This document shows, piece after piece, positions 1 through 22,250 of a DNA stretch of 64,000 nucleotides. The notes under the pieces are model-generated. The model did no database searches. It worked only from the letters and a program-made list of their open reading frames with translations, and was not told where the DNA came from. A program made the translations under genes and the position numbers. This DNA is from an uncultured archaeon. Lineage in GTDB: Archaea > Aenigmatarchaeota > Aenigmatarchaeia > CG10238-14. How positions within the stretch are numbered: the stretch's first letter is position 1; every line of letters begins with the position of its first letter. The DNA lies in contig CAYJVB010000001.1 in NCBI GenBank assembly GCA_964373575.1, positions 8,262-72,261 on the forward strand, in the 5' to 3' direction.

Positions 1-101
1 ACGAAGGCCAGCAATATTCTGAATATAACAGTTAATGTTGAAACAGGTTCAACCAATGCACCACCAATAATAAAGGAATATAAGTTACTTTTAAAGTTAT
101 C

Positions 102-4372: not shown

Positions 4373-5278
4373 TTATCTAATGTCAAATTTATACCACCCC
4401 ACTTTAATCCTTTTTGCTATTTTAGATTTTACAAATAAATTTAAATACCCCAACAATGTGTTTCTATGAAATACAATTTGATATTTTTGTTCTATGTTAT
4501 CTTTTATGCTTTTAAAATTTATTTTATCTGGATAAGAGTTTCGCAGTTGATTATAAATTTCCTTTAAGAATGGTAATTTTGAGTGTGTTTGTTCGGGAAA
4601 CAATTTCATTAACCTATCTATATCTAATTTTTCACCTTTTTTAATGACTTTCAGTTTTCTCTTCTTTGGTCCATCCAAAATATTCATGAAAAAGTCAGCA
4701 GATCTACTACTAAAGCCGTATTTCCATCCAGTAGACCATTTTGTGATTTGGTATCTAAATTTTCTAATATGAATCTCCTCTTTTTTAAGAATTGAGATAA
4801 TCTGGTCGTACAATTTTCTGCTTTTGGTTGAAAATTCTATTGTTCCATCTATTTTAACAGTACCATCGAATATCAACAATCCTGAAATAAAAGCTAATTT
4901 ATGTTCTCTAGTATTATTAAGAATCTGACTTGGTACGGAAACTGTAGTTGATTTTTTGCCATAAGGAAATTCTAAACTATGAAAATATTGGACTAAGATT
5001 TTATTTCCAATGCGATAACGATGCCATTTTCTATGTGACTCAATTGAACCTTTCTTTTTTATTATAGATTTTATCCATTCTGATGCAAGAAAAATGTTTT
5101 CTTTCCATCCATCTGCAATCTCAAAATAGTATGACGAAGCTGGATAGCCGTTCCAAATTTTATTTTGTTTGTATATAGTTCCATCAGCTGCCAAAGCACC
5201 GCACAGTTTACTTATTGTTATACCATTCTTATTATTAGGGATAAAATTATTCTTGAATTCTATAGTATTATTGTACAC
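4373..5278 (-). CDS. Free-standing double-motif LAGLIDADG homing-endonuclease-like protein
   Basis: Two LAGLIDADG-type motifs about 95 aa apart (LCGALAADGTI and FISGLLIFDGTV). The product is basic and Lys-rich. It is not embedded in a host ORF or in an rRNA/tRNA intron. Confidence 0.55.
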   Translation of the reverse strand: MYNNTIEFKNNFIPNNKNGITISKLCGALAADGTIYKQNKIWNGYPASSYYFEIADGWKENIFLASEWIKSIIKKKGSIESHRKWHRYRIGNKILVQYFHSLEFPYGKKSTTVSVPSQILNNTREHKLAFISGLLIFDGTVKIDGTIEFSTKSRKLYDQIISILKKEEIHIRKFRYQITKWSTGWKYGFSSRSADFFMNILDGPKKRKLKVIKKGEKLDIDRLMKLFPEQTHSKLPFLKEIYNQLRNSYPDKINFKSIKDNIEQKYQIVFHRNTLLGYLNLFVKSKIAKRIKVGWYKFDIR

Positions 5279-6647: not shown

Positions 6648-8717
6648 TTAACAACTCATTCCTTCTTGTCTTAAACTAAACGCGTCAAACCACCAATTAT
6701 TTCTATATGGAAATGGTGAGACAACTTCTATGCAAATTTTGTTGGTAGACGATTTTGCTGTTATAGTCCTACTAATTTCATTATATTGACCATATTTAAT
6801 TTGATTTCCGTCCATCGACCCACTGTCATAACCATCATTTGTAAATATACGGATACGACCAGACGCTGGATCAGTAGCATATATTTTGTTTTCATTTTGA
6901 ACATCGTATAGGTCTGGATATACGTTAATTGTAAAATCGTATTGTCCAGGAGTCAACCCAGAAACATCTTGACACATCGTAAACTGGGTTGGGCCCCATT
7001 TGAAAATTTTCAAATTTCTATCATTATCAACATAAAACTGATCATCAACAGTCCCTTTTGCAAGCGTATTTGCTTCTGGGGGTAGATATTCTATAGTATC
7101 AAGATTATTTCCTGTTCCAGGATCTATTGTTTCAATATTTTCATTGTCACTACAAGAAGGTGTCTGACCACATGTTAAAGTCCAATCACCCGGCATATTA
7201 ATACTCGTGCCTGTTTGTGCATATGAACCACCGAAACTAGGGTTAGTCAACATGTTAGGACATTTTGGAATAGTAGTTGAAGTCGTTGTTGTAGTTGGTT
7301 TTGGTATAGGCACACCTAATTCCTTAACGCACCATCTACTTCCAGTATTTGGCGTAGGCATGGGAACACCAGATTGATCTTTACAATTACAATCAGTGCA
7401 TTCCCAAAGTATCGGCACATCTTCGCACTCCCTAATACCAGTAATAGGATCAATATTACATACTGTTTTCCATTTTATTGGTGTCCAAACACAATCATTT
7501 ATGTCCATTATAGCAGAATTTTCAGGGCAATTTTTCTTTTTAACATCTATTGTGGCATATACGGAAAATTCTAATTCATCATGATCTTTTGTAGAAAGTA
7601 AATGTTTTTTATCTATACAAGTGAATGTTGCCTCCATTGCACCTCTAGTTTCTTTCCAAAATTTACAAACTTTACCATTACAAAAATCTTCATTTGTCCT
7701 TTGACCTTTCGGTGGCGTCCAACTAAAAGCCTCTTGTAATTTTTCTTCAGAAACACTCCCAATGACTGATTTTCTGTTCCCGTTTGAATCCAATTTAATG
7801 CCTCCACCACACAATGGCCCTGTTGTTCCAAGTTCGCATCTATTACAAAACGGTGGATTTTCCCATGTTTGCACTTCATCACTTCCGGCACACTCTTCTG
7901 TTTCAGTATAATTACAAGCAAATCCGCCACTACAAGTTATCCTTGAACTCGTTGGAAATCCCCCATCATCAAAACCCCTTTGTAAATCCTTCACAGCTAC
8001 TTGTGTGGCATGTTCAACACATGTTTGGAAAGTCGGACAGTGATCAATGCTGGGACAATCACAAATTTTCTCTAGGCAAGTCGCCACTTCATGTTTCAAA
8101 ACATTTCTATTCGCCCATTCACTATATTGCCTGTACATGAGCCAATATCTCACCGGACTTACTTCCTCATAAACATCATTATCAGATTTTGCATTTCCAT
8201 CTTCCCCGATTACTTCAATATTGCTCCCATAAGAGCCAATATTATAGCTAATATCATTTAATCCACTATCAACGCTGCTCTGACTAACATCATAATCAAC
8301 GCAAGCATATTTGGAAACACCATACCTCAGTATATCTCTTTGATTTGCCACATTCAGATTGACAATGTATCTATTAAGATAATCAATTGTATCTTTTGAA
8401 AGATGATATCTTACTTGATCAACAGGTGGAATTTTCGGATCAGTACAGATCCAATTTCTCTCTTGTGGTATACCCAATACCCCACCAAGCTTTCCAGTAT
8501 CTCTCAATGCATTATGACTTGAGAATATCAATGCCACCCTGGAGAAACCCTTCATATAATCAGTCTCCTTGTAAACAAGCTGTTGCTTGATTTGTTCGGT
8601 TAGTCTCTTGCCTGTAGAAAGATTAGTGAATGACGATGAAGCCCAAATAATAAGAAACATTGTAATCAAACTAACTATTACCATAAGACTTGTTTGTGCC
8701 TTGATTTTCATCACCAT
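6648..8717 (-). CDS. Large secreted or membrane-anchored Cys-rich protein (689 aa) of unknown function. It is the first gene of the surface island.
   Basis: N-terminal TM/signal-anchor (MVMKIKAQTSLMVIVSLITMFLIIWASSSF). More than 40 Cys. A poly-Thr linker (TTTTTSTT). No catalytic motif recognised. Confidence 0.5.
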   Translation of the reverse strand: MVMKIKAQTSLMVIVSLITMFLIIWASSSFTNLSTGKRLTEQIKQQLVYKETDYMKGFSRVALIFSSHNALRDTGKLGGVLGIPQERNWICTDPKIPPVDQVRYHLSKDTIDYLNRYIVNLNVANQRDILRYGVSKYACVDYDVSQSSVDSGLNDISYNIGSYGSNIEVIGEDGNAKSDNDVYEEVSPVRYWLMYRQYSEWANRNVLKHEVATCLEKICDCPSIDHCPTFQTCVEHATQVAVKDLQRGFDDGGFPTSSRITCSGGFACNYTETEECAGSDEVQTWENPPFCNRCELGTTGPLCGGGIKLDSNGNRKSVIGSVSEEKLQEAFSWTPPKGQRTNEDFCNGKVCKFWKETRGAMEATFTCIDKKHLLSTKDHDELEFSVYATIDVKKKNCPENSAIMDINDCVWTPIKWKTVCNIDPITGIRECEDVPILWECTDCNCKDQSGVPMPTPNTGSRWCVKELGVPIPKPTTTTTSTTIPKCPNMLTNPSFGGSYAQTGTSINMPGDWTLTCGQTPSCSDNENIETIDPGTGNNLDTIEYLPPEANTLAKGTVDDQFYVDNDRNLKIFKWGPTQFTMCQDVSGLTPGQYDFTINVYPDLYDVQNENKIYATDPASGRIRIFTNDGYDSGSMDGNQIKYGQYNEISRTITAKSSTNKICIEVVSPFPYRNNWWFDAFSLRQEGMSC

Positions 8718-9181
8718 GTATACAATTTTCCTAGAGTGAATTGACCGTCATCACTTGGAATAGGTATTATTATAGTGCTGGCCCTAACCCTTCCATTTAT
8801 TGGAATATCTTGACCCCATTCAAACCCCACGGATTGTACAGTGACATGCCATTTACCAACACCAAAGTTTGTGTCAAAATATTCATAAGTTAATTTTGAT
8901 ACATTCACTCCAAAATCCCCAAATCCATAATTGACAGTTCTTTCTTTCAATAAAACAGCATCACCCAGCATTTGCATAGTGTTTCTTCTTGCTGGCGGAA
9001 CCTTTTTGTAATAATAATCAATCAATGCCGTGTTCGCTCGATCATTCTGGTAAGTGTCAACGAAAAGTTCCTCAATATCCTTTTTGTTTGACGATATGAA
9101 ATACATCGAAATAGCTAGAATTATGACTGAAGTTGCAACCAACAAAAATATTTCCAGAATCTCTTTTGTCTGACCTTTCAT
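8711..9181 (-). CDS. Pilin-like protein with a class III-type N-terminus
   Basis: MKG|QTKEILEIFLLVATSVIILAI has a basic residue, Gly, then a hydrophobic helix, like archaeal prepilin signal peptides. A ~120-aa globular domain follows. Confidence 0.45.
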   Translation of the reverse strand: MKGQTKEILEIFLLVATSVIILAISMYFISSNKKDIEELFVDTYQNDRANTALIDYYYKKVPPARRNTMQMLGDAVLLKERTVNYGFGDFGVNVSKLTYEYFDTNFGVGKWHVTVQSVGFEWGQDIPINGRVRASTIIIPIPSDDGQFTLGKLYTW

Positions 9182-9185
9182 AAAA

Positions 9186-11180
9186 TCACTGTGTAACTAA
9201 AATCTTTTCCCCAGCATTTCTGATATTAAAAATATAACTTCCAGCAGCTTTAACATCTTCAAACTGAATGTCTTTCGTGCAAGAGAGTTTTCTGCAAGAC
9301 GTTGTACCATCATTATAAAACATACATAATTTTTTGTCATCAACATTAGGGCTTTTTGTTACTTTAATCGTTACAGCATCGCAGACTGGCTTGGAGGGGT
9401 TCAGATTAGTCTGTTCAGAATCGATCTTAACATCTCTATCTTGTGATATTGTGTAAGATGTTGTTGCTTCGCATTTTATGGATGCAGGAATACCTATGCA
9501 TGAAGCCCCATCCTTTTCTCCACTAAATTTAATATCATAAGTTCCCGGTTTCTGCGGAGATCCTTCCCACTCCCATACCGAAAAATCAGGACTTCCTGAA
9601 ACAACATTAGGATTAGGGTCGACTATTGTTGTTCCTCCATATGTGTTCAGCAAAACACAAGTATAACCGAAAGATGATTCAACCCTAAACCTTACTCTAT
9701 TATTTCCTATGGAATAAACAGGATAGTGCAGGTTGATTTGATATTGTGAATCAGTTTCAGTCTCACAACTTTCATCTATTTTTCCACTTAATTCTTCTAG
9801 TTCCCCATCAGTCATTTTTATTTGCATTATAGCCGGAAAATATCTCGATTCATCTATTTTTATTGCAACAGGATATCTTGCTGTAACCTGATTTCTCAAA
9901 GCATTATCTTTCGACGCCTCTTCTTGGCCAAACGACCACACCTCTTTTTTAGCATCAGGGTTCTGGAAAAACAAAGATTCTAGCGCTATTGGAGATAGAA
10001 TTGTTCCATGCGTATTTAGGAGCAATAAATCAAACTTCTTTATATCCTCCAAATTTGTTTGCCCGATAAAAAGCCAATCCGAATCAACTTTTATACCAAT
10101 CGGTTGAACATTAACAACAGTCGGGTTTCCATACCCGCCATTATTATGTTTAACAGCAGGACATCCATCATTAGCGCATTTCTCCATCATCATAGCCCAC
10201 AAACAATCAGCATCATAAGGATCAATTATATCCATTATATATCCAATTCTCACAGTATCAGTCTTTCTTTTTTCCGCAGTATATTTTATTACATTCAGTC
10301 CAAACGTAATATCTTCAAAATCAGTATAAGTAAGCCCTCTGCTAGGGCATGCTGTTGGATTACTGCACCAATTATTTGCCTTTTCTATCCACTGTTCTAT
10401 GCTCTCAGTTTTGTAAAATCTGAAACACTGCTGCGGTGTACATCCCCTTCCGGCAGTGGGATCATTTATACCACAAGAAATATCCTGACCTGTAGCGATG
10501 AATGCACCCTTGCCCACAATATGACTATCTTCTGTGTATGCAGCTGTTGTCCTTCCGCTTGTTGTATCAATTAAAATATCTCTCCACGATCCACCAATAG
10601 GTACAACAGAAGCGGATTCACTATGACAATCACCTAAATTGTTTAACGTGTCAATGCCATTTGTAAATGTTTCATCAACCGATTCTTCATTAACATTTGT
10701 CAAATAAGGCGTAGTGTTTTCATAAACAAAAGGTATAAAGAATTCTGGATCAACATCTATCCCTCTATCCCCATCACTCCAAAGCACACCTCCGCTAAAA
10801 ACATAATTCTTTAACTTGTCAAGTTCCTGAGATGTTTCGATATCAACTTTGTATCCAAAACTATAATCTCTAGCACAGCTTGGCTCTATATTAGAATATT
10901 TACTTTTGAATTCATCTAATTTTTTCTTGTCCAAAATCCTATGCGTTGCAAGTTCACCCTCACTTCCTGAGACTCTACCAATTTCATCATAAGCCAAACA
11001 ACTTTTAGAACCAGATAAAACTTCTAAAGTGTTTATCGCCTTGTTGTTTAGCCTTTGTTCTGCAGACTCTTCAGCTGTAATGACATTCAGTGAAAAAAGC
11101 CTGTTGACAGAAATTCCAATTATTAATAGCGTCAATATAAGAAAAACCCCTTTGATTAGAAATTGGGAGATACCTTTCAT
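9186..11180 (-). CDS. Large secreted protein (664 aa) with a class III/pilin-like N-terminus; function unknown
   Basis: MKG|ISQFLIKGVFLILTLLIIGISV at the N-terminus. Cys-rich. Sits within the contiguous minus-strand array. Confidence 0.45.
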   Translation of the reverse strand: MKGISQFLIKGVFLILTLLIIGISVNRLFSLNVITAEESAEQRLNNKAINTLEVLSGSKSCLAYDEIGRVSGSEGELATHRILDKKKLDEFKSKYSNIEPSCARDYSFGYKVDIETSQELDKLKNYVFSGGVLWSDGDRGIDVDPEFFIPFVYENTTPYLTNVNEESVDETFTNGIDTLNNLGDCHSESASVVPIGGSWRDILIDTTSGRTTAAYTEDSHIVGKGAFIATGQDISCGINDPTAGRGCTPQQCFRFYKTESIEQWIEKANNWCSNPTACPSRGLTYTDFEDITFGLNVIKYTAEKRKTDTVRIGYIMDIIDPYDADCLWAMMMEKCANDGCPAVKHNNGGYGNPTVVNVQPIGIKVDSDWLFIGQTNLEDIKKFDLLLLNTHGTILSPIALESLFFQNPDAKKEVWSFGQEEASKDNALRNQVTARYPVAIKIDESRYFPAIMQIKMTDGELEELSGKIDESCETETDSQYQINLHYPVYSIGNNRVRFRVESSFGYTCVLLNTYGGTTIVDPNPNVVSGSPDFSVWEWEGSPQKPGTYDIKFSGEKDGASCIGIPASIKCEATTSYTISQDRDVKIDSEQTNLNPSKPVCDAVTIKVTKSPNVDDKKLCMFYNDGTTSCRKLSCTKDIQFEDVKAAGSYIFNIRNAGEKILVTQ

Positions 11181-11294: not shown

Positions 11295-13784
11295 TCAGGG
11301 TAAAGGATAGTCAGTGGCAATACTAACAACAGAAGCTAATTCAGTGGAATCTACATGATCCTTTGAAGAAAATCTATTCATTATTGATAATATTCCATTA
11401 AGGTTCCTGTCCAACTCCACAGATGAGTGATCTTGAAATTCTATTTCTATACCTGCAATACCAACTGAATCAAGATAATCAATTGCATCTCCCGTTACTG
11501 GATAACCTGCAGAATAAGAAGGTCGATTACCACAATATCCAGCAAATATCATGCCATTTGGAGCAACACTACTATGATAAAAAATTACACCTTTGACATT
11601 ATTTGAAATAAGGAAATCACGCACAGCCCGCGTTTCAGGTTCTGAAAATGGGTTGCTCCCACCACTAACTATATTGTCTTGCCAATAGGCTGTCTCATCC
11701 CAATTACAGTCCCAGTTTCTATTTAAATCAACATTGTTAGCATTAAGTCTTCTAGATAGGTATTCGTTAAGTGTTAGTCCTGGGGCCCAAATACCCGAAG
11801 AATAACCATCTGGATTCATATTTGGAATTATGAAAAGAGTTATATCATCTGGTATTTGTTGAGGATTTGATTCAAAATACGATACCACATTTGATGCTAT
11901 TTCAATGCCATTGTGTTCATAGCCACCATGAATTCCGCCAACAACAAGTAGTTTAGTATTCCCATGACCAAATTTAAAAACTTCTATTTCCCTTCCTTCT
12001 ACAGATTTTCCTATTATGAATTTATTTGAAAACTCTTCAGAACATAAAAATTCAGGTTTGACATTTTCTCCATTTACTTTCAATTCAATGTGAACATGCG
12101 TTCCTTCACCTAAATTAAACAATGTACCCACCTGTGTTCCTGAAGGGACATTTTTCACGTTACCTTCACCCCGATTTAAATGACTAAGCCAAATTTCATA
12201 ATTATTACCTTCGTCATCAAAGCCTTTGTAAATTCTCAAATAACCCCACATTGGATTTAAATCATTAGGAACACCAAGTTCTGCTCCAGTCCACGACCAT
12301 GTAATAGTTTTGCCATTAATAGAAGGGAGAAAAACAGGTGCACCTGGCCCCGTACTTGATACATCTATTGCATACCCATATGTTTGACTAAGTTTCCATC
12401 CAGCTCTTTTTTTATGGCATACATTAATAGTCCCATCAGGATCTATAGAATCTAATGGACCGGTAGCACCACCAATATTATACGAACATCTACCTGCAGC
12501 GCTAGCAGATCCAGACCAGTAAACATTACTTCCATGACCTCCTTTACATTTAGGGTAATTACTGTTATACGATCCACATGTGATAGTAGGCGATTTAACG
12601 AGACATGTTCCTTGAAGACTGGAAGTTGTTGTCGTTGTACAACGTGTTTCTTTTTGACATTGAGGCCAAACAGGATAATACTGTCCAGCCTTGATATTGA
12701 CATAAGTCATAACTACAGCAGCTTCGCACTGGTAACAATCATATCCCTGGCTTTCACAGTATGGATCACCTGTAATACAGACATCATATTTTCTAGCACC
12801 TATGGTGAGAGAATCTAAATTACCATATACGTCCCAATTCGTGCTACCTGTATCTTTGACAGCTTCAAATATTAGTGCAGCTCCTCCATTGTATGCAGCC
12901 AATGCAGATTTAATGTAGTTGTCAGTTCCGTGTTGCTTAAAATTATAGCCAAAAGACGCGTAAGTGTCTAACGAACTAAATTTATTTTTTAAAACTCTTA
13001 TACCACAACGGAAATTTTTGACTGCAACAGCGCTAATTTCCTCGTAAGTCCCAATATCATTACACGATGATTCCGCCGTACTTCTTGTAACCTGCATAAG
13101 GCCGCCTCTTTGCAAAATATAATCGGCTTCATTCCACCCGGTTTCCGTTCCGATAACAGATGCTACTAGATATACCGCATTTTCTACACTACCCGTGTAC
13201 TGTTGCAAGTTTTCCACAATCACAGCTTCTTTTATCTGATTGTAATATTTGTTGAATCCGTCAATGCATTTTTGATTTCCAACATGGGAAAGGCATATAT
13301 TAGCAGGACAAGAAACTAATTTTTCTTCACAAACCTGAGGAAGTGTTGTGGTTGTAGATGTCGTTGTCGTAGTTAATTTAACACCACCACATCCAATATT
13401 ATTTTCTGGCTTAATGTCAAGTTTTTGTTCTTCTTTTCTGACAATTATTTTATCAGAATCTTCAAAGCACACATCACTTATCTTATTACCTTCTATGAAA
13501 AATGATACCGACTTTCCAGTAGTCTTGTCTTGTACCGAAACTATATTGTCCGAAACACGGAATACATATTTTTTTACCAAAGGACCATAACTTAATGAAA
13601 CATCATTGGTTGAAGCAACAACCCTATAAATTGTGGTTTCTATGTCAGAAGAAAATTCTGCTAAAGGCTGATCTTGGGACGATTGACTCTCCTTGAAAAA
13701 AATTGGTCTCAACAAAAATAATGCTATTCCCACTGCTATCAGTATTCCAACAGTCAAAATAACTTCTGATACATCTCCTTTCAT
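11295..13784 (-). CDS. Pilin-like N-terminus fused to a three-domain murein hydrolase: lytic transglycosylase (SLT), M23 peptidase and M14 zinc carboxypeptidase
   Basis: N-terminus MKG|DVSEVILTVGILIAVGIALFLL. SLT motif ETGWNE...GGLMQV at ~aa 195-330. Poly-Thr linkers. M23 motif GEGTHVHIEL at ~aa 560. M14 motifs HGGYEHNG, IIPNMNPDGY and DLNRNWDCNWDE at ~aa 600-829. Confidence 0.65.
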   Translation of the reverse strand: MKGDVSEVILTVGILIAVGIALFLLRPIFFKESQSSQDQPLAEFSSDIETTIYRVVASTNDVSLSYGPLVKKYVFRVSDNIVSVQDKTTGKSVSFFIEGNKISDVCFEDSDKIIVRKEEQKLDIKPENNIGCGGVKLTTTTTSTTTTLPQVCEEKLVSCPANICLSHVGNQKCIDGFNKYYNQIKEAVIVENLQQYTGSVENAVYLVASVIGTETGWNEADYILQRGGLMQVTRSTAESSCNDIGTYEEISAVAVKNFRCGIRVLKNKFSSLDTYASFGYNFKQHGTDNYIKSALAAYNGGAALIFEAVKDTGSTNWDVYGNLDSLTIGARKYDVCITGDPYCESQGYDCYQCEAAVVMTYVNIKAGQYYPVWPQCQKETRCTTTTTSSLQGTCLVKSPTITCGSYNSNYPKCKGGHGSNVYWSGSASAAGRCSYNIGGATGPLDSIDPDGTINVCHKKRAGWKLSQTYGYAIDVSSTGPGAPVFLPSINGKTITWSWTGAELGVPNDLNPMWGYLRIYKGFDDEGNNYEIWLSHLNRGEGNVKNVPSGTQVGTLFNLGEGTHVHIELKVNGENVKPEFLCSEEFSNKFIIGKSVEGREIEVFKFGHGNTKLLVVGGIHGGYEHNGIEIASNVVSYFESNPQQIPDDITLFIIPNMNPDGYSSGIWAPGLTLNEYLSRRLNANNVDLNRNWDCNWDETAYWQDNIVSGGSNPFSEPETRAVRDFLISNNVKGVIFYHSSVAPNGMIFAGYCGNRPSYSAGYPVTGDAIDYLDSVGIAGIEIEFQDHSSVELDRNLNGILSIMNRFSSKDHVDSTELASVVSIATDYPLP

Positions 13785-13787
13785 CTT

Positions 13788-15269
13788 TTAACACGCCAAT
13801 CCATTCATATATGAAACTAGAGGACCATTATTTCCTGCATCTCCAGTTAAATCCGGATAAATTTCAAATGAACCCCAACCAAACTGCCCATAATGAAATA
13901 TAGCTGCGCCAACAACATAGCTATCTTCCTTCAACTTGGAATCATACCATTTAAGGTCCTCAAGATATGAGCTCGCGTCAGTATGAGCCCTCCAACCACA
14001 ATTATCTTCACAACCTCCAGAATCAATTCCAGTTTCAGTTATTACCAAAGGAATTTCTAAATTATTTGGTTGCAAATATTGTCTGTAAACTTTTCTATAT
14101 CTCAGTGTAAGCCATCCAGTGTCTCCATCCAAATTACATTGCATTGAAGGTGAACAATATTCATGTAAGCTAAGATATCCACCATTTTGTTTTGCAGCCT
14201 CTAATGCAGGCTTAAATTCAGACCATAAAGCCAAATCAGGGTTACCAGCTGAGAACGACCCAATACACGCCTTTCTACTTATACTGTTCAGCAATTTTAT
14301 TCTTTCAACCTCAAAAGAACTCATCCACTGCATTTCTTGAGCTGTATGACCTGGAACAGGTTCATTATATCCTTCCCAACAATCTACACTATTAGTAGAC
14401 TCAATAGTACCTCTATTTCTATTAAACCAATCTCTAGCCCTTTGTGCAGCATCTCCATCAGTTGGCTGTTGTCCAGCGGATTCAACAATTCTTCCAACAA
14501 TAAATGTGCATGGTGACGTCTGTTTTATTTCCTCAGCCTTCCCATAATCGCTATTAAGTTTAACAACAGATGGTTTTGTTGAATCAACAAATTCCATCAC
14601 ACCAGATTTTTGAAATTGTGTCTGAATTCCAAGCTTACTGCGACACGCTAAATTCAAATCACAAGTTCTTGGAGGCATTGTCGTTGTACTTCCAGGCAAT
14701 GTAGTCGTCGTTTCCTCATCCCCACCATAATTGTCAGTAGGTACATGAATAGGTGGTGGCGGGGGTTTAGACAATTCCAAGTTTACAGCATTACTAGTTC
14801 TCTTGAAAGTAACCTCATACTCCTTCACCAACGGCCTTCCAAGTATCTTGTTCACCGCAATCTGAAAATCATTATAATCCTCTAGTGTTCCCATATGCGG
14901 CAACCTAGTCCTGCATCTCAGCTTACTGCATCTATTAAACTGCTCCGACTTAAACTGGAAGCATAGATAATCTCCCTCACTTAACTTATCACTCTTAATG
15001 AGATCGCTAACAGTCGGCAATACATCATCAGGTTTGTCAGTTGTATAAAACACACGTACTTGACTTGGTATCAATAAATCAAAGGTCAAAAAATTTCCCG
15101 GCTCTTGAGAGCATACAGAATCTAAATCTTCGTTTATATTGGAAAATTGCTCAAGAAAAGTTTGTTTTTGAGATTCAATGACAAACGATGCTATTAACTG
15201 ATAACCTATTGAAAAAACCATTAATCCTAATACAATCCCACCAACAGCTAGTAAAATAGTGTCAGCCAT
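13788..15269 (-). CDS. Membrane-anchored, pilin-like N-domain fused through a Thr/Pro linker to a clan GH-A (GH5-like) glycoside hydrolase
   Basis: N-terminus MADTILLAVGGIVLGLMVFSIGY. Linker TTTTLPGSTTTMPP. The catalytic-type motifs WEGYNEP (acid/base NEP) and LVITETGIDS (nucleophile TE.G) are typical of GH5/clan A. Confidence 0.5.
   Translation of the reverse strand: MADTILLAVGGIVLGLMVFSIGYQLIASFVIESQKQTFLEQFSNINEDLDSVCSQEPGNFLTFDLLIPSQVRVFYTTDKPDDVLPTVSDLIKSDKLSEGDYLCFQFKSEQFNRCSKLRCRTRLPHMGTLEDYNDFQIAVNKILGRPLVKEYEVTFKRTSNAVNLELSKPPPPPIHVPTDNYGGDEETTTTLPGSTTTMPPRTCDLNLACRSKLGIQTQFQKSGVMEFVDSTKPSVVKLNSDYGKAEEIKQTSPCTFIVGRIVESAGQQPTDGDAAQRARDWFNRNRGTIESTNSVDCWEGYNEPVPGHTAQEMQWMSSFEVERIKLLNSISRKACIGSFSAGNPDLALWSEFKPALEAAKQNGGYLSLHEYCSPSMQCNLDGDTGWLTLRYRKVYRQYLQPNNLEIPLVITETGIDSGGCEDNCGWRAHTDASSYLEDLKWYDSKLKEDSYVVGAAIFHYGQFGWGSFEIYPDLTGDAGNNGPLVSYMNGLAC
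14811..14982. repeat. Copy 1 of a ~171-bp perfect direct repeat. Copy 2 is at 15342..15512.
   Basis: Compared base by base: acctcatactccttcaccaacggcc ... agataatctccctcact is identical in both copies. The flanks diverge. Confidence 0.85.
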
Positions 15270-15293: not shown

Positions 15294-15800
15294 TTATTTT
15301 TTAAAATCAATATTTATTCCGTTGACAGTCCTGGTAAACCTCACCTCATACTCCTTCACCAACGGCCTTCCAAGTATCTTGTTCACCGCAATCTGAAAAT
15401 CATTATAATCCTCTAGTGTTCCCATATGCGGCAACCTAGTCCTGCATCTCAGCTTACTGCATCTATTAAACTGCTCCGACTTAAACTGGAAGCATAGATA
15501 ATCTCCCTCACTCAATTTGTTATTATCTATCAGTTCATCGACATTCAGTAATATTTGATCAGGATTATCGGTAGTGTAAAGAACCCTGACTTGGTTCGAT
15601 ATTCTTATATTTGAAAGATGCGAATTCCCTGGTTCATTTTGGCATACACTTTCTATTTCAGCATTTATTGTATTGATCTGGTTGAGAAAATCATGTTTCA
15701 TAGCCTGTAAAATATTGTTAGTTAACAAATTATATCCTATGAGAAAAATCATTAACCCTATTATAATTCCACCCGCAGCAAGAATAATCGTCTCTGGCAT
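15294..15800 (-). CDS. Truncated paralog of the N-terminal (pilin-like) domain of the 13788..15269 protein. A 60-aa stretch is identical at protein level and 171 bp are identical at DNA level.
   Basis: MPETIILAAGGIIIGLMIFLIGY..., then the stretch LSEGDYLCFQFKSEQFNRCSKLRCRTRLPHMGTLEDYNDFQIAVNKILGRPLVKEYEV, identical to the stretch in the upstream gene. Confidence 0.45.
   Translation of the reverse strand: MPETIILAAGGIIIGLMIFLIGYNLLTNNILQAMKHDFLNQINTINAEIESVCQNEPGNSHLSNIRISNQVRVLYTTDNPDQILLNVDELIDNNKLSEGDYLCFQFKSEQFNRCSKLRCRTRLPHMGTLEDYNDFQIAVNKILGRPLVKEYEVRFTRTVNGINIDFKK
15342..15512. repeat. Copy 2 of the ~171-bp perfect direct repeat. Copy 1 is at 14811..14982.
   Basis: See copy 1. Confidence 0.85.
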
Positions 15801-15824: not shown

Positions 15825-16433
15825 TTATCGTTTGAACAATTTGTCTTTGTTTTTAAGATAAACGACTACAGCAATAATTATCAAGGCAAATAATATTAAC
15901 AAAATTCCTATAGTCACATTTCTACTGCTACTGGTTTTTGTAGGCAAAGTAGTAGTTGTGCTTCTAACAGTAGTCGTTGTAAGTCTTGTTGTTGTAGTTG
16001 CCTGCAATGTTGTTGTAGTTGCCTGCAATGTTGTTGTAGTTGCCTGCAATGTTGTTGTAGTGATAGAACTAGGCAATGTAGTAGTCGTCACTGATGGTTG
16101 ATTTACATCTATAAAAACCTCATCGGATTGACCCTCATTACAGTCTGCTTTAATCTTAACTGTTCCGAGTGGTGAGCCACAACTGGTCCAATTTATACTT
16201 GCAATTCCCGTCGATGATATCTTTGGTAGGCACGAAGGACTGCTGACAAGCAATTTGTAAACAATTAAATTTCCTTGTGTACAATTTTCTACAACCTTGC
16301 ATTCACAAGTCTTGTCAGTGTCGCATTTCCAGTTTTCATTTCCCGATTTGCAGTATTGAATAGTAATAGCAGCTGACACATTACTAATAATAACCAAAAA
16401 AACCATAGCTGTAATAAGCATTTTTTTCAGCAT
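15825..16433 (-). CDS. Secreted Cys-rich protein with a (TTTTLQA)n repeat linker and a C-terminal TM anchor
   Basis: Sec signal MLKKMLITAMVFLVIISNVSAA. Eight Cys in the first 100 aa. TTTTLQATTTTLQATTTTLQATTTT. C-terminal stretch IGILLILFALIIIAVVVYL followed by basic residues. Confidence 0.5.
   Translation of the reverse strand: MLKKMLITAMVFLVIISNVSAAITIQYCKSGNENWKCDTDKTCECKVVENCTQGNLIVYKLLVSSPSCLPKISSTGIASINWTSCGSPLGTVKIKADCNEGQSDEVFIDVNQPSVTTTTLPSSITTTTLQATTTTLQATTTTLQATTTTRLTTTTVRSTTTTLPTKTSSSRNVTIGILLILFALIIIAVVVYLKNKDKLFKR
15988..16060. repeat. 21-bp tandem repeat (gttgttgtagttgcctgcaat, about 3.5 copies) inside the CDS. It encodes the TTTTLQA repeats (minus strand).
   Basis: Three exact consecutive 21-nt units at 15988..16008, 16009..16029 and 16030..16050, plus a partial fourth unit. 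Confidence 0.8.
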
Positions 16434-19400
16434 GTGAACGCCTCCTGTTTTAATCTATAAATTCTATTCAATGGATTATCAAATCTGTATACAGATATTA
16501 TTGCAGTTAGCTTTGTCCCAGTAGAGCATGTTAGAATATTTGCTAATGGAATAGATAAAATACCTGTTGATCCCGCATTTAATTTTTGGAATTGTGCATA
16601 ATAAATTATTCCCTCGGGTTCATGAATTAAATTAACATAAACTATTACATCAACACCCACCAAATTTTTAGTTATTTGTAAATTGCACTTTTCTTTACTG
16701 CAAGTAACGTCACTCATATCGAATTGTTGATTTGGTAATGTAGTTGTTGTAGTTGAAGAAGTGGTGGTTGTAGCCTGCAAAGGCACAACATTTGCTGTTA
16801 TAGACAATTCATCTATCACTGCAGTCGCTTGACTAACTTTATCCATGTTAGACCCAATAAACAAATCATTTCCCAGTGATGATGGAACATTTACAGACAG
16901 ATCACTTCCTACAAGAACACCATCAACATAAAGCATTATCTCATTGGATCTCCAAGTCGTCCTGATATTGTGCATCACATTTGCCTTCCACGATGAAACA
17001 TCAGCACTTACAGTATTGATATTGCCAGCACCATCAATTAAATCAAATACAAGTCTGTTGCCAAAGTTTTTGTATATAGATATCCTGTTGCTGTCTTTGC
17101 TTTCTCCAACATCAATGAAATAATGTGAAGAGTCATCATTACCATTCCAATATGGTTTAACCCAAAAATCAACTGTTCCCTTGTTGGGGTCGATATTTTT
17201 TACAGTCGAATAAGTTAATACATTGTTTGTTTTAATTACAACCCCATCATTTTTTTTGCCCGTATCAAAGCCAGTCGGTGATATTTTGATGTTATCTAAT
17301 AATATTGTTCCCACATCGGTAGCAGACTCGAAATCAATCTTCAACTTGTTTATCTGTCCGTCATTATCTGTCCACTCAGTATCAGTGATATCAAATGATA
17401 GTGTTGCATAATCATTGCTATCAGTTATTGAAAATGACTGTGAGCATGCTTCATCAAACACAGCGCAATCCACTCCATCCGTATAGTATACCTTGATGCT
17501 CTTCGGTCCTCCCTGGTACCCCTTGTATCTCAACGACAAGTGATTTAGCGAAGCATCAAAGCTTACTGATTTGAAAATATAGGGGTCAAATGTTGAAGTC
17601 AATTGCCCTTGATATTCGCCTCCACTTACACTCCCTCTTATCATATTTTCCTGCCAGTCTTCAGTATTGCTTGTAAAGTCGTCTATCAACACCTCTTTTT
17701 GGTTAGGATTTTCACCACCCTGGCACGTCAGAGTATTATCAAAACCGCATAATAATTCAGTTGAAGTTGGTGTAGTAGTAGTAGAAGTAGTGGTTGTTGC
17801 TCCCGGTAAAGTTGTACTGGTCGTTGTTGTTGCACCGGGAACAGTTGTAGATGTTGTAGTAGTTCCACCCGGAGATAAAGTGACTGGAATTATCAACTTT
17901 TTAACGATTTCTGTTATTCCGCTTGGATCAAAGCATATTGAAAGTACTTTTATCTTTCCGTCAGTACCTGTTGGAACAATAGTAACCTCTGTTGGTGGAA
18001 TGTCGACTACAGGTGATTGAATGAGATAATCTAATGGCGTCTTATCTTCATTTGTGATGACCCATAACCCCCCATTACAGTTTTGAACAGTGCACTTAAG
18101 AGGTTGACCTGTTTGAACTGAAGTTTTGTCACATGCAAGAGTATATTTTGGCGGCAAAGTTGTTGATGTAGTAGTACCACCTCCCACACCACCAGATGGT
18201 GTACACGCTCCATTAGAACATGTTTTATCTGCTGAACAAACATTATTACATCCACCGCAATTATTTTTATCTGTTTTTAAATTTACACATGTTCCAGCAC
18301 AATTTGTAGTTCCACTTGGACATGTACCACCTCCCCCGCCGCCAGAACTAACGCCATAACCAACAGTCTCAGATTGGCATTGATCGCTTATGAATTTTGC
18401 CTGATAAGTTTTTTCCGTTGATGAAGCCGTTCCTTTGAAAGTCCATGTCCACTGCCCACCAGTAGGACCGCTTATTTCTGGTTTATCATTGGGATTGGGT
18501 GTTGCACCATCACCAGTGTTAATTTTTACATTGGTGTATCCACTTGAAGCAGTAAAAACAAATTTAATTCCACCACCAGGTGTTACAGTAGAAGGGTCAA
18601 TATTTAATTTTCCACAAGTGCTTGAACCACTACCGGAAGCAGTAGTCCAACAAGGATCATTTATATTCTCACAACTGCACGCGTGATTTCCTTTTTCAGG
18701 AGTTCCTCCAACTGAATAACACCAATAAGCGTATCCATCTATACATTTAGCTCCTATAGAAGTACAACTGCCACCTGTTCCAGTTCCAGGACTTGTTGTC
18801 CAACACGATGGTGGCGACGAAACCTGATTTGAAGTAATATTGCAACTACAAGGATGGTTTCCTTTGTCAAAACCACGGCTATCAGTATAACACCACCAAG
18901 CCCAACCTTGACTGCATACAGGACCTGCAGGAGAACATGAAACACCTTGGGTTGTACCGCCACCAGTTCCAGTTCCTCCACCCCCGCCGGAAGACTTTAT
19001 ACTAAAACTATATGTCGAAGAATCATATGAAGCTTCACCATTCTTGGCAAATACAATCCATTCATATCTATGACCATTGACTAGACCACCAACAGAACAA
19101 GAAATAGTCACAATATCAATATTATCCCCACCACCACCACATTTTACATCGAAGTCTCCGCCTACTGTTGCATCTTGGAATTGTACTTCATGAACGCGTG
19201 AACCACCGATGCAACTGTCAAGTTTATAATCAATTTTAACCTTAAGAGTTACACTAGTAGTTCCAGCTGCCAATTGGGCACCGCTGACAGGTTCAGGAGA
19301 AGTGATTGTTGGTATCCGTGATTCACAAAGTGCGCTGCAACACAAATATGGAGGTGTACATGTGTTTGCGACATTACAAGGGGGAACAGCCAACACAAGA

Positions 19401-19459
19401 CTCAAATTATTTAACATTACAACTAAAATTACAATAAGTATTTTACTACGTGATTTCAT
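16427..19459 (-). CDS. Giant secreted Cys-rich modular protein (1010 aa). It has duplicated Cys-rich WCY modules, poly-Gly/Thr linkers and a C-terminal LamG/concanavalin-like lectin domain.
   Basis: Sec signal MKSRSKILIVILVVMLNNLSLVLA. Repeated modules GWAWWCYTDSRGFDKGNHPCSC and GYAYWCYSVGGTPEKGNHACSC. Linkers TTTSTTVPGATTTTSTTLPGATTTTSTT. LamG-like segment ~aa 720-880 (HYFIDVG...LVFDLIDGAGN...IMLYVDGVLVGS). Confidence 0.55.
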   Translation of the reverse strand: MKSRSKILIVILVVMLNNLSLVLAVPPCNVANTCTPPYLCCSALCESRIPTITSPEPVSGAQLAAGTTSVTLKVKIDYKLDSCIGGSRVHEVQFQDATVGGDFDVKCGGGGDNIDIVTISCSVGGLVNGHRYEWIVFAKNGEASYDSSTYSFSIKSSGGGGGTGTGGGTTQGVSCSPAGPVCSQGWAWWCYTDSRGFDKGNHPCSCNITSNQVSSPPSCWTTSPGTGTGGSCTSIGAKCIDGYAYWCYSVGGTPEKGNHACSCENINDPCWTTASGSGSSTCGKLNIDPSTVTPGGGIKFVFTASSGYTNVKINTGDGATPNPNDKPEISGPTGGQWTWTFKGTASSTEKTYQAKFISDQCQSETVGYGVSSGGGGGGTCPSGTTNCAGTCVNLKTDKNNCGGCNNVCSADKTCSNGACTPSGGVGGGTTTSTTLPPKYTLACDKTSVQTGQPLKCTVQNCNGGLWVITNEDKTPLDYLIQSPVVDIPPTEVTIVPTGTDGKIKVLSICFDPSGITEIVKKLIIPVTLSPGGTTTTSTTVPGATTTTSTTLPGATTTTSTTTTPTSTELLCGFDNTLTCQGGENPNQKEVLIDDFTSNTEDWQENMIRGSVSGGEYQGQLTSTFDPYIFKSVSFDASLNHLSLRYKGYQGGPKSIKVYYTDGVDCAVFDEACSQSFSITDSNDYATLSFDITDTEWTDNDGQINKLKIDFESATDVGTILLDNIKISPTGFDTGKKNDGVVIKTNNVLTYSTVKNIDPNKGTVDFWVKPYWNGNDDSSHYFIDVGESKDSNRISIYKNFGNRLVFDLIDGAGNINTVSADVSSWKANVMHNIRTTWRSNEIMLYVDGVLVGSDLSVNVPSSLGNDLFIGSNMDKVSQATAVIDELSITANVVPLQATTTTSSTTTTTLPNQQFDMSDVTCSKEKCNLQITKNLVGVDVIVYVNLIHEPEGIIYYAQFQKLNAGSTGILSIPLANILTCSTGTKLTAIISVYRFDNPLNRIYRLKQEAFTC

Positions 19460-19620: not shown

Positions 19621-20532
19621 TTAACACGAATCCACCGTCAATGCAGCTGTTGCCTTTCCCTGTGGTCCAGTACAAATCAACTGCACAGTCCATGTATCAG
19701 GTGCCTTTGTACAAATTTGATTCAAAGTATTTGTTATAGAAGGCTGAGATCTAACCTTGCCACCAGAAACAGTTGGTGTTGCTCCTACAGTCGGCGTGTA
19801 TTCCCCATTAAGAACAACTATCCCCGAAGCCGAGTTACATCCAGTATTGCAATCTATTGACCACGGTGTTGTAGTTTTATCCAATTTACAATTAGACAGA
19901 GTTAGCGAACCACCAGTAACTATATTCATACATGAAGCCGATGCATATCCAGCCTGCTGCCACCACCAATCTGCCTGCAAATCAGTTGGTGGAGTATATC
20001 CCAAATCAGCCCACATCTTCGGATCTTTGTTGCAGCTTCCGGAATAAATACCAGTATTCTCATTTGTGATTAGCTTAATTGCAGTATCACCCGGCAATCC
20101 TTCATCAAGTTGATAATAATCACACAATACTCTCAAACAATTTTCAGCTGTCAGTCTGTAATTACCGCAGCTGCAGTCTGTTACATGGAAGCAATAAAGC
20201 GCATCTTCGCAATAAGGTAAACTTCTGACAAAATTACCTCTATATTTTTCTCCAGGTCTTTTATCACCAGTAATATCTAGATTGACCTTCTTCAAACAAT
20301 AATCAACAGCATCCCTTCTGTTACAATTACCATCTCTATAGCTGTCACAAACCTGGTTGCACGAAGCCTTTTGCGCTGTTATCTGATACGCATCTTCAAA
20401 TGCCCTTAACTGTTCATTTATCTTGTCAGGCTTTACTATAGCCGTGAACATCCTTATCAAAACAAGAACAACAATTATAAGAACAAACATACCAAATATA
20501 ATTTCCAAAGCCCCAATACCCTTCTTCTTCAT
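19621..20532 (-). CDS. Pilin-like protein: class III N-terminus plus a Cys-rich globular domain
   Basis: MKKKG|IGALEIIFGMFVLIIVVLVLI has a KG cleavage-type site, a Glu early in the mature part and a hydrophobic helix. About 20 Cys follow. Confidence 0.5.
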   Translation of the reverse strand: MKKKGIGALEIIFGMFVLIIVVLVLIRMFTAIVKPDKINEQLRAFEDAYQITAQKASCNQVCDSYRDGNCNRRDAVDYCLKKVNLDITGDKRPGEKYRGNFVRSLPYCEDALYCFHVTDCSCGNYRLTAENCLRVLCDYYQLDEGLPGDTAIKLITNENTGIYSGSCNKDPKMWADLGYTPPTDLQADWWWQQAGYASASCMNIVTGGSLTLSNCKLDKTTTPWSIDCNTGCNSASGIVVLNGEYTPTVGATPTVSGGKVRSQPSITNTLNQICTKAPDTWTVQLICTGPQGKATAALTVDSC

Positions 20533-20610
20533 TCTATCCTGTAACTATTATTATTTTTCCTAAATAAATGTTATTGTTTGTTTGTCCACAGGTTTTCACA
20601 TGTTATCTAG

Positions 20611-20919
20611 TCAAATTCTGTAAAACTTCTTCATAATCTGCTCTATTTGTGAAGATCTTCTTGGATTCAAAGATACCTCCATACCATAGTGAGTTGGTTT
20701 ACTCAAAATAAATCCATCTCTAATAAGATCTCTTGTAATTTCTTGAACTCTTTTCAAACCATGTTTTCCAAGATCACGCTCATTCCATCCCCTTTTCAAA
20801 TTGTCAAATGAAGTGTGGGATTCTCCCCACTTACCTCTTTTAGTTAGCTTCAGAAATATTCTTACCCTTATTTCGTCATCTGAAATCATAGGTACACTTA
20901 TAATACCTTTGAAAGTCAT
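20611..20919 (-). CDS. Hypothetical basic protein (102 aa), divergent from the wHTH regulator gene
   Basis: The ORF shares a ~30-bp AT-rich divergent promoter region (20920..20950) with the 20951..21286 regulator. No motif recognised. Confidence 0.35.
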   Translation of the reverse strand: MTFKGIISVPMISDDEIRVRIFLKLTKRGKWGESHTSFDNLKRGWNERDLGKHGLKRVQEITRDLIRDGFILSKPTHYGMEVSLNPRRSSQIEQIMKKFYRI

Positions 20920-20950
20920 GTTTAAATACCTACAGATATATGTATTATTT

Positions 20951-21286
20951 ATGACAGACGATACACTGCTAATTCAATTTCTTGGAAACAACCCAACCTT
21001 AAGGGTAATCGACTTTTTTTTAGATAATAGAACTGATTATTCAAAAAAAGAAATAATAAATGCTCTTGGAATGTCAAAAACAACTTTCTACAAAGTTTGG
21101 AAACAATTGGAGAAATTTGGTGTAGTAATGCCTACAAGAAGATATGGAAATGCGGTGTTATTCAAAATTAATGAAAACAACCCCATTGTCAGAAAACTGA
21201 TGATTTTTGACTTTACATTAATTAAACAGGCTATTCCTTACGCAAAACAGAAAGTTAACACATCTAGAAGACCATTGAAACTATAA
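20951..21286 (+). CDS. Winged-helix transcription regulator embedded in the pilin island. The ORF-track ORF 20801..21286 is trimmed here to an internal ATG.
   Basis: MTDDTLLIQFLGNNPTLRVIDFFLDNRTDYSKKEIINALGMSKTTFYKVWKQLEKFGVV is an HTH + wing. The ORF-track extension overlaps the opposite gene. Confidence 0.5.
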   Translation: MTDDTLLIQFLGNNPTLRVIDFFLDNRTDYSKKEIINALGMSKTTFYKVWKQLEKFGVVMPTRRYGNAVLFKINENNPIVRKLMIFDFTLIKQAIPYAKQKVNTSRRPLKL

Positions 21287-21391
21287 TAAACAATATTTCT
21301 GTAAAATAACTGTTAACTTGAATTTCCTTTACAGTTAAAGATACACAAGAATATTCAAACTAATTCAATATGATAGTAATTACTAACATAA

Positions 21392-21838
21392 TCAATCCAA
21401 ACAAATCAATATATCATTATTCAAAACACGTTTAGATGCCATCGATATTTTTTTATTTTCTACATAATCAAATCCAATATAAATTGTATTAGTATTTATC
21501 TCAGGAGAAACGCAACTTTCCACTCTAGCTACATCTCTTTCTTTACTTATCGTTCTAACAAAATTCTGTATGTCATTAAATGTAATTCTTTCTTTTGCCT
21601 TACCCTTGAATTCGAAACACTGATTAGTCACAAATCCATACAAAACATTTTTAAAATCTTCATAGCTTATCTCACCGCCATTCAAAAATTCACACAAATA
21701 AGTTGCATTAGCCACAGGAACAAAACTAGACTTATCCTCACCCTGTCTGAAAATTGAAATCATTATCGCACTTGCAATTCCAACAAAAACCAGTAATAAA
21801 AAAAACCCAAAAGCATAATCCAAAGCTAATCCCTTCAT
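21392..21838 (-). CDS. Pilin-like protein with a class III N-terminus
   Basis: MKG|LALDYAFGFFLLLVFVGIASAIMISIF. Confidence 0.45.
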   Translation of the reverse strand: MKGLALDYAFGFFLLLVFVGIASAIMISIFRQGEDKSSFVPVANATYLCEFLNGGEISYEDFKNVLYGFVTNQCFEFKGKAKERITFNDIQNFVRTISKERDVARVESCVSPEINTNTIYIGFDYVENKKISMASKRVLNNDILICLD

Positions 21839-21839
21839 T

Positions 21840-22250
21840 TTAACACGTTATCTTTACTTTTCTGATAAGTGAATCATATTGGAAAAATACAGTCTTCGTA
21901 TTCTTATTGCACTCAATATTGCAGTATTCTTTAACATCATTTTGTAACAAAATTGATGAAGGGTTAACATCCGTTTCTAAACTAACAGCATAGCATAACC
22001 CATTTTCAGGGCATTGGCCTTCTTCACTTTTGCCCCAGCATAAATTACAATATTTTCCAACAATATCTGCTGTTAACGAATTCTCATTTGATGGCTTATC
22101 TATTTTAATTTCGCATTTATTTTCATTGCATGGGGGAAAAATACAAATCCTACTTATATTATCCCTGAAAGTCCACATGATACCTATGAGCACCATAACT
22201 ACAACAAAATACAAAATCATCTTCATCGGATATTCTAAAACCATCGACAT
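21840..22250 (-). CDS. Small membrane-anchored Cys-rich protein (136 aa)
   Basis: N-terminal TM (ILYFVVVMVLIGIMWTF) and 11 Cys. Coupled to neighbours (1-nt spacing). Confidence 0.4.
   Translation of the reverse strand: MSMVLEYPMKMILYFVVVMVLIGIMWTFRDNISRICIFPPCNENKCEIKIDKPSNENSLTADIVGKYCNLCWGKSEEGQCPENGLCYAVSLETDVNPSSILLQNDVKEYCNIECNKNTKTVFFQYDSLIRKVKITC

Follow-up and report, generated by a model that had tools for sequence, protein, structure and literature searches.

Bacterial modular type IV pilins, such as PilB and PilC of Streptococcus sanguinis, come in many architectures, predicted peptidases among them, and display of their modules at the pilus tip has been proposed (Raynaud et al. 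2021, PMC8179133). Among archaea, binding proteins processed by the class III signal peptidase (SPIII) and the bindosome have been described, as have DPANN 'system 1' loci with two platform genes (Sivabalasarma & Albers 2026, bioRxiv 10.64898/2026.04.22.720090). Archaea that lack murein nevertheless encode murein hydrolases, with Sec or Tat signals or with none (Strock et al. 2025, PMC12352652), and 'vampiristic' GH23 genes in Woesearchaeota as well as large GH23 proteins in DPANN archaea have been reported (Vigneron et al. 2022, PMC9723730). Here we describe a gene (11295..13784, minus strand) found in a 64-kb stretch of archaeal DNA (the window) from contig CAYJVB010000001.1 of assembly GCA_964373575.1. 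It lies among genes of a pilus-like operon and encodes an 829-amino-acid (aa) protein that joins a pilin-like N-terminal module, here called the carrier, to a lytic transglycosylase domain (SLT), an M23-like domain and an M14 carboxypeptidase domain. This gene probably, though far from certainly, encodes a modular pilin- or pseudopilin-like protein of an archaeal type IV filament system that displays murein hydrolases, and its composition suggests that a filament, or a stalk at the cell surface, holds the enzymes out for attack on bacterial walls or for scavenging from them.

The window and the gene belong to an archaeon of the Aenigmatarchaeota (DPANN). A bacterial origin, from the candidate phyla radiation (CPR), was rejected because the window holds an archaeal signal recognition particle (SRP) RNA (54808-55080, Rfam), Alba and diphthamide synthase; its flanking genes also include geranylgeranyl reductase and UPP synthase, and its G+C content is uniform at ~35%. 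Among GTDB species representatives, a relative was seen only in 'Candidatus Aenigmatarchaeota archaeon RIFCSPHIGHO2_02_FULL_35_12' (locus L001), and the two members of the carrier family that bear a taxonomic label are assigned to Aenigmatarchaeota/Aenigmarchaeota. A preliminary description of this DNA, made from its letters and open reading frames (ORFs), had spoken of a single fused protein, and the gene is indeed one uninterrupted ORF on the minus strand. A gene-fusion artefact was considered and rejected because the multi-domain build recurs in orthologues on independent contigs.

The carrier module and its family

The protein begins with MKG-DVSEVILTVGILIAVGIALFLL, that is, MKG/DVSE (a slash marks the putative cleavage site here and below) followed by 22 hydrophobic residues, and residues 4-25 reached a hydrophobicity score of 3.03 in a scan of the N-terminus. 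Substrates of archaeal SPIII are marked by a positive residue at -2 and Gly or Ala at -1 (PMC3387779), a rule that K2-G3 fits, and leaders of 3 aa, the lower limit known, can be cleaved by PibD (PMC4187195). Since the ATG of the gene sits 3 nt past the stop codon of the upstream gene, the leader is no longer than MKG.

A profile of residues 1-134, built with three close homologues and run through an exhaustive HMMER search of 1.84 billion representatives, matched 65 proteins. Seven of these were WD40/STAND proteins, which we rejected as spurious repeat matches, leaving 58 genuine members. The exhaustive search was needed because word-index homologue searches, which returned 3 matches with the full protein and 2 with a 35-sequence profile, are nearly blind to this family. 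The module occupies the extreme N-terminus in all 58 members, whose lengths range from 77 to 1268 aa, and several members of ~125 aa consist of the module alone. Leaders across the family follow the pattern M-x(0-n)-[KR]-[GAS], after which the family alignment reads xx[ST]-E-x-I-L-T-x-G-x-L-I-A. In an alignment of 35 sequences, K at -2 is conserved in 91%, Glu7 in 94%, Leu10 in 97% and Gly13 in 100%; the Glu stands at +4 in the 829-aa protein and at +4 or +5 in its relatives, and the +1 residue is D here and V, I or L in the relatives. Conservation within the carrier peaks in the hydrophobic helix (2.9 bits per column versus 2.4 for the remaining columns of the same alignment), a pattern typical of a pilin assembly helix (alpha1N) and not of a passive anchor. 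A conserved basic residue directly follows this helix (aa 24-32, ~13689..13715; family consensus LQLRG) and the leader side is net acidic, an arrangement that is unusual for an anchor with its N-terminus inside the cell (N-in).

Consistent with these features, AlphaFold2 (AF2), supplied with 35 family sequences, modelled the carrier with a confidence (pLDDT) of 88.6 as a helix spanning residues 3-57 and seven strands at residues 62-125, so that the predicted architecture is a lollipop, with a beta-sheet head on a long helix. The prepilin-like N-terminus put forward in the preliminary description thus gains support from the model, by K at -2 and G at -1, from the leader and alpha1N helix conserved in a family of 58 members, and from the pilus-like operon described below. 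Its outline of a ~130-aa module followed by a poly-Thr linker also agrees with what we found, namely a module of ~125 aa, the linker behind it and a second Thr-rich linker further on (Table 1). The carrier appears to be a newly described, pilin-like sequence family.

Several results weigh against this reading, those on the carrier being given here and those on the enzymes and neighbouring proteins where these are treated. A Foldseek comparison of the carrier with PDB found nothing, the likeness to solved pilins being weak. None of the curated pilin and class III models (Pfam Class_IIIsignal, Pilin_N, Arch_flagellin and N_methyl) matched at E up to 10, in searches whose HMMER filters drop most matches above E ~0.1, and the nearest curated match was Tad (TadE/G-like), below threshold with an E of 0.056 and in relative P0010 only. 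Furthermore, Pfam tables of the window and of six related loci (L001, L002 and L004-L007) contain no Peptidase_A24, and a scan for the GxGD motif in ORFs with several transmembrane segments gave no candidate in the window, L001 or L002. As to the fold, for which structure prediction had been recommended as a check, the confident helix and beta head point one way and the missing Foldseek and pilin profile matches the other; on balance the model leans toward a pilin.

The same negative results favour a different explanation, in which the N-terminus is an uncleaved type II signal-anchor. The enzymes would then sit on the cytoplasmic membrane with their Thr-rich stalks passing through the S-layer, and their place in a pilus operon would reflect co-regulation, the pili attaching to a target that the anchored enzymes digest. 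The window and the syntenic loci yielded no prepilin peptidase, no pilin profile matches, fold matches are weak, and two neighbouring proteins with putative or recognised hydrolase domains (13788..15269 and 22865..24319) have transmembrane N-termini that lack a K-G leader and resemble plain anchors, so that tethering to the membrane could by itself account for the architecture. Even so, we regard this as a rather unlikely account of the carrier. In 58 divergent proteins, K is kept at -2, G, A or S at -1 and Glu at +4/+5 (94%), one Gly is invariant, and the helix is better conserved than any other part of the module, none of which one would expect of a plain anchor. The stand-alone modules of 125 aa have no cargo to anchor, and with a net negative N-flank and a positive C-flank (R26, K31) the positive-inside rule disfavours an N-in orientation.

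Enzyme domains and exchangeable cargo

Of the three domains behind the carrier, SLT comes first. It exceeds the Pfam gathering score (aa 201-314, 25.5 bits against a cutoff of 21.3), and the motifs of family 1 are intact, with E214 in GTETGW, GLMQ at 228-231 and AYNGG at 297-301, as the preliminary description had stated for E...GLMQ. These motifs are invariant among three close homologues, and the whole region (aa 150-382) is kept in P0002-P0004 and in P0041, a distant family member made of carrier, SLT and a canonical M23 domain (E 4e-20).

The M14 domain is recognised clearly by Pfam (aa 586-738, E 5e-24, 85.8 bits against a cutoff of 21.6) and aligns to the carboxypeptidases B, N, A2 and T of PDB (E 5e-9 to 1e-6). 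NPDG (657-660) and DLNRNW (686-691) are present as had been claimed, as are H736 (FYHSS) and IEIEF (779-783), the latter assigned by eye as the site of the catalytic Glu. The HxxE that had also been claimed is instead HGGYE (HxxxE), where the HMMER alignment takes a one-residue gap, and the same variant occurs in homologue P0004. With the NCBIfam model of the murein tripeptide amidase MpaA the domain scores 24 bits where 157 are required, a marginal likeness; because it is nearer to general carboxypeptidases than to MpaA, a murein-lytic role for M14 is something we infer.

For the region in between (aa 390-582), the M23 match in Pfam falls below threshold (16.6 bits against 28.7, E 0.009) and is confined to the C-terminal half of the profile; neither PHROGs nor a PDB profile search gave a match, and hhalign to P0031 gave negative or trivial results. 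Alignment by hhalign to the M23 domain of P0041 extends over 106 columns (E 4.7e-4, probability 32%), and the region follows SLT as M23 does in that protein. In this alignment the HxH (H563/H565), the His of SHL and an Asp (D474) are kept, but HxxxD lacks its zinc-binding His (YG--YAID, where P0041 has YGIHSGID), so that the HxH named in the preliminary description is present while its claim of an intact M23 signature holds in part only. The region is best regarded as derived from M23, with a metal site that is non-canonical and apparently degenerate, and its activity is uncertain.

The name 'triple murein hydrolase' with intact signatures is therefore overstated, because the M23-like metal site is degenerate and M14 is of a generic type with a variant zinc motif; solely SLT is clearly both intact and murein-specific. 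The missing zinc ligand of the M23-like domain and the HxxxE of M14 make the catalytic competence of these two enzymes doubtful; each may have an altered activity or none, which tells against a fully working set of displayed hydrolases. A full-length AF2 model, made from a three-sequence alignment, was poor (pLDDT 36) and therefore unusable for the catalytic domains or for a fold search.

The cargo behind the carrier varies widely. According to Pfam, the 58 members include SLT in 6, papain-type C1 in 4, gingipain-type C25 in 3, M14, M23, GH5 and reprolysin-like domains in 2 each and Amidase_2 in 1, besides GH39/GH2_C/GH_cc. Four close orthologues occupy the same position of the locus on independent contigs and share carrier and SLT, whereas their C-termini differ: SLT is followed by the M23-like and M14 domains in the window, by the M23-like domain only in P0002 (a complete gene on L007), by a reprolysin-like domain in P0003 (L001) and by reprolysin-like and M14 domains in P0004 (L005). 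A carrier with an exchangeable effector thus appears to be the design of this family, and such swaps among close orthologues suggest rapid adaptation to differing targets. Elsewhere in L005 (GCA_964373165.1, CAYJTF010000005.1), the GH3 protein (1..620) also has a GDSL lipase domain, and the operon contains an inserted small gene for Amidase_2 (2273..2584), which we take as further evidence for cargo shuffling over the whole locus.

It could also be supposed that the cargo does not stay attached. The carrier would then target the protein to type IV machinery, and an action like that of the type II secretion system (T2SS) pseudopilus, or clipping of the linkers, would free soluble antibacterial or scavenging hydrolases. 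Secreted peptidoglycan hydrolases of archaea kill bacteria, and 68% of the archaeal enzymes have no recognised Sec or Tat signal (PMC12352652); both Thr-rich linkers of the 829-aa protein are exposed and offer potential cleavage points, and proteases are also encoded in the operons of relatives. We consider this release improbable, since there is no outer membrane to cross, every family member has its cargo fused covalently to a conserved helix of the assembly type, and there is no sign of a processing site.

The pilus-like operon and a proposed path to the surface

The gene for the 829-aa protein is part of a region of ~39 kb that contains a secretion ATPase, two platform genes and numerous ORFs with class-III-shaped N-termini (Table 1). 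Such N-termini were found in 15 of the 29 ORFs of the cluster between 6.6 and 41 kb and in none of the 27 ORFs outside it (Fisher p = 6e-6); the shape, M..[KR][GA]/hydrophobic, was read at true starts, and all fifteen ORFs are minus-strand genes that fall between 6.6 and 39 kb.

Table 1. Features of the 829-aa gene and of its neighbourhood (window coordinates)
Feature	Coordinates	Strand	Basis
Whole gene, carrier-SLT-M23-like-M14, 829 aa	11295..13784	-	ORF and translation; identical NCBI protein is P0001, on an 88-kb contig
Leader M-K-G, aa 1-3, putative class III signal-peptide leader (K at -2, G at -1)	13776..13784	-	
Hydrophobic alpha1N-like helix, aa 4-25, with Glu7, Leu10, Gly13	13710..13775	-	Family conservation
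Carrier module, aa 1-126, predicted 55-residue helix and seven-strand head	13407..13784	-	AF2 and family profile
Poly-Thr linker 1, aa 138-147	13344..13373	-	Translation
Cys-rich segment and SLT, aa 150-382	12639..13337	-	Pfam (match aa 201-314, 12843..13184)
Thr-rich linker 2, aa 383-389	12618..12638	-	Translation
M23-like (LytM-type) domain, non-canonical metal site, aa 390-582	12039..12617	-	Sub-threshold Pfam, hhalign
M14 zinc carboxypeptidase domain, aa 586-829, HGGYE variant	11298..12029	-	Pfam, PDB, PHROG zinc carboxypeptidase
Conserved pilin-like trio: 664 aa MKG/IS.., 156 aa MKG/QTKE.., 689 aa ..KA/QTS..	6648..11180	-	Downstream of 11295..13784
Subunit B (aa 1-168), Pro/Thr linker and putative glycosidase domain	13788..15269	-	NEP and ITETG motifs by eye
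Stand-alone paralogue of subunit B	15294..15800	-	Identity to 13788..15269
Small class-III-shaped ORFs, 303, 148 and 167-176 aa, conserved behind platform gene	19621..22781	-	Span includes non-class-III-shaped ORFs 20611..20919 and 21840..22250
Subunit A (aa 1-130), poly-Thr linker and GH3 NagZ-like beta-N-acetylhexosaminidase	22865..24319	-	Pfam GH3 E 2e-35; NCBIfam
Platform protein 2 (T2SSF/FlaJ-TadC-like), heads operon holding 11295..13784	24300..26345	-	Pfam T2SSF sub-threshold, 21 bits vs 25.2
Polytopic membrane protein, M15_4 (VanY-like) and SLT	27327..29885	+	Pfam, translation
Five more class-III-shaped ORFs, 100-302 aa	29882..33542	-	Span includes unflagged ORF 32069..32527
68-aa MKKG/ISGH.. 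(candidate major pilin, adjoins platform gene) and 350-aa MKG/NSD..	37611..38995	-	
Platform protein 1 (T2SSF)	39151..41196	-	Pfam above threshold
FlaI/TadA-type secretion ATPase, intein-interrupted	41165..44914	-	Pfam T2SSE, Intein_splicing, LAGLIDADG; NCBIfam FlaI/TadA

The gene order of this operon is kept in six other loci (L001, L002, L004, L005, L006 and L007), as judged from BLAST of the L001, L002 and L004 ORFs against the window, from gene tables of L005-L007 and from the L001 ORF list. It runs from the platform gene (54-57% identity between 24300..26345 and the first gene of the syntenic operons) through small subunit A, three to four small class-III-shaped proteins, a large secreted protein, subunit B, the carrier-hydrolase, which is present as two tandem genes in L004, and the trio to Alba. 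The first member of the trio bears a vWA domain in L002 and L004, where it is reminiscent of the TadG/PilB-type adhesin pilins; the trio itself is tandemly duplicated in both loci (12306..19108 in L002, 16521..23034 in L004).

Further hydrolases are encoded around the 829-aa protein. The GH3 assignment of 22865..24319 and the M15 and SLT domains of 27327..29885, both made in the preliminary description, agree with Pfam; the C-terminal domain of 13788..15269, which had been called GH5-like, matches nothing in Pfam, PDB or PHROG, and we keep it as a putative glycosidase; the orthologues of 13788..15269 in L001 and L005 carry LysM. That the architecture of transmembrane module, linker and hydrolase recurs in these neighbours is true of 13788..15269 and 22865..24319, although without K-G, but not of 27327..29885, which is polytopic and built differently. 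The N-terminal modules of the two fusions also exist on their own: that of 22865..24319 matches stand-alone proteins of 133-136 aa in L002 (E 1e-21, 133 aa) and L004, and that of 13788..15269 has 65% identity to the stand-alone 15294..15800 and 39% to a stand-alone protein of 174 aa in L002. Subunit B is thus duplicated in this genome, with one bare and one fused copy, and in L002 both subunits A and B occur as stand-alone proteins (1220..1621 and 9434..9958).

Since this archaeon has no murein of its own, the substrate is presumed to be bacterial peptidoglycan, and SLT, M15, the NagZ-like GH3, Amidase_2 and LysM, taken together from this and related loci, all point to it. SLT genes are common in the secretion and pilus loci of bacteria, where 'specialised' lytic transglycosylases such as VirB1 and BfpH belong to the machinery, and the present protein might by analogy open the cell's own wall for a pilus, or act on pseudomurein. 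This is very hard to reconcile with an archaeal organism, as DPANN archaea are not known to make murein, and GH23 cleaves the MurNAc-beta-1,4-GlcNAc bond, which pseudomurein does not contain. The murein-directed domains just listed also speak for bacterial murein, and relatives exchange the cargo for proteases and cellulases; we therefore give this possibility almost no credence.

Under the favoured reading, that of a pilin- or pseudopilin-like hydrolase carrier, the following path can be proposed. The carrier (residues 1-126) would present its M-K-G leader ahead of an alpha1N helix, whose Glu at +4 stands at the opening of a helix of ~55 residues under a small beta-sheet head. The leader would be removed by a class III signal peptidase whose gene would lie in another part of the genome, and the ATPase and platform machinery of the operon would take up the helix. 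The protein could end in a pilus, most likely at the tip or among its low-abundance subunits, or in a short surface stalk resembling the bindosome; in either place the two Thr-rich linkers would keep the SLT, M23-derived and M14 domains outside the cell and its S-layer. Acting with the GH3/NagZ-like, M15 and SLT and possibly glycosidase domains of its neighbours, these enzymes might cleave glycan strands and shorten stem peptides, whether to breach the wall of a bacterial host or prey, as predation or parasitism would require, or to harvest wall fragments as a scavenger. In a bolder version the filament itself would be a lytic tool, the carrier family and at least two other small subunits presenting interchangeable hydrolases, from murein hydrolases to cysteine proteases, metalloproteases and glycosidases, on it or at its tip, so that contact dissolves the bacterial wall locally; this we regard as speculative and, taken in full, unlikely.

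How DPANN archaea make physical contact with their partners is largely unknown, and whether any of them targets bacteria is an open question. If the lytic filament were real, it would be the first molecular mechanism for a DPANN archaeon breaching a bacterial host or prey, and enzyme-armed pili with cassette-like exchange of cargo would form a new functional class of type IV filaments. The proposal offers a concrete and testable delivery route for DPANN lytic enzymes and would join DPANN pili with DPANN murein hydrolases, which have been treated as separate topics. A class III, pilin-like route would also explain how some archaeal peptidoglycan hydrolases are exported without a Sec or Tat signal (PMC12352652). 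The carrier provides a searchable signature, a module of ~125 aa with K-G/xx[ST]E-ILT-G-LIA, and the list of its cargo would amount to a catalogue of what these cells digest.

Other features of the region were recorded in passing. Inside the operon, 16427..19459 (minus strand) encodes a protein of 1010 aa with a Sec signal, a Laminin_G_3 (ConA-like lectin) domain and a Cys-rich Stig1-like domain; L005 has a Laminin_G_3 protein of 1046 aa at the matching position, and the cargo of the S. sanguinis modular pilin PilC belongs to the same lectin superfamily. The intein of the ATPase carries a LAGLIDADG endonuclease, and a free-standing LAGLIDADG ORF lies 36 kb away (4373..5278, minus strand). An HTH_17 (excisionase-type) ORF (34143..34529, plus strand), antisense amid the array of pilin genes, may be a regulator or what is left of a mobile element. 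At 59873..60640 (minus strand) a Zn-dependent phospholipase C is encoded that has a Sec-type signal peptide; as a membrane-attacking enzyme it would, together with the murein hydrolases, fit a lytic lifestyle. Three tandem paralogous membrane-protein ORFs (46140..47814, plus strand) have similar N-termini (…FNFVVPFLIT…, …FNFLFPFLLT… and …FEVYLPFLLT…), for which Pfam gave nothing above threshold. A tRNA of 61 bits was found by Rfam at 2304..2410 (plus strand), presumably bearing an intron given its span of 107 nt, whereas ARAGORN gave none in the window.

Comparison with known systems

The literature that we searched describes neither a pilin-like family that carries hydrolases nor murein hydrolases as subunits of an archaeal type IV filament operon. 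The concept as such appears to have precedents in the modular pilins, the class III binding proteins and bindosome, the DPANN GH23 proteins and the archaeal peptidoglycan hydrolases; the present family would extend to enzymes the modular-pilin idea, developed for bacterial adhesins, and the bindosome idea, developed for binding proteins.

Compared with the modular pilins, the 829-aa protein is archaeal, its K-G leader has just 3 residues, its carrier belongs to a new family and its cargo is a chain of murein hydrolases instead of adhesin modules; that it enters a pilus is a prediction. The N_methyl motif G/[FM]xxxE (IPR012902) of these pilins is not matched by the 829-aa protein or its relatives.

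The Sulfolobus bindosome, reportedly described by Zolghadr in 2007, and the SPIII binding proteins need a type IV filament-like ATPase and platform system for their localisation at the surface. Their cargo consists of the binding proteins of ABC transporters and their genes stand beside transporter genes, whereas the cargo here is hydrolytic, is mounted on a complete pilin-like head and is encoded within a pilus operon. No substrate-binding (SBP) domain was detected by Pfam in the 829-aa protein or in the cargo of the family.

The locus resembles the Epd/Tad 'system 1' in having one ATPase, two platform genes and many minor pilin-like genes, together with a processing motif of the type G/xxxE and, in syntenic loci, a large vWA-bearing pseudopilin (TadG-like). 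It differs from Epd/Tad in that the locus holds no EppA or TadV peptidase, and sequence likeness amounts to the sub-threshold Tad match already mentioned. We know of no Tad or Epd subunit that carries hydrolases.

Like the archaea of the murein hydrolase surveys (PMC12352652, PMC9723730), the present one is murein-less and has murein hydrolases that are presumably directed at bacteria; in those studies contractile injection systems were suggested, and no link was made to class III signal peptides, a pilin-like carrier or a pilus operon. As in type II secretion, type IV filament machinery would here serve the export of hydrolytic enzymes, but where the pseudopilus of that system pushes separate substrates through an outer-membrane secretin, the enzymes of this archaeon, which has no outer membrane, are covalently fused to the pilin-like carrier itself.

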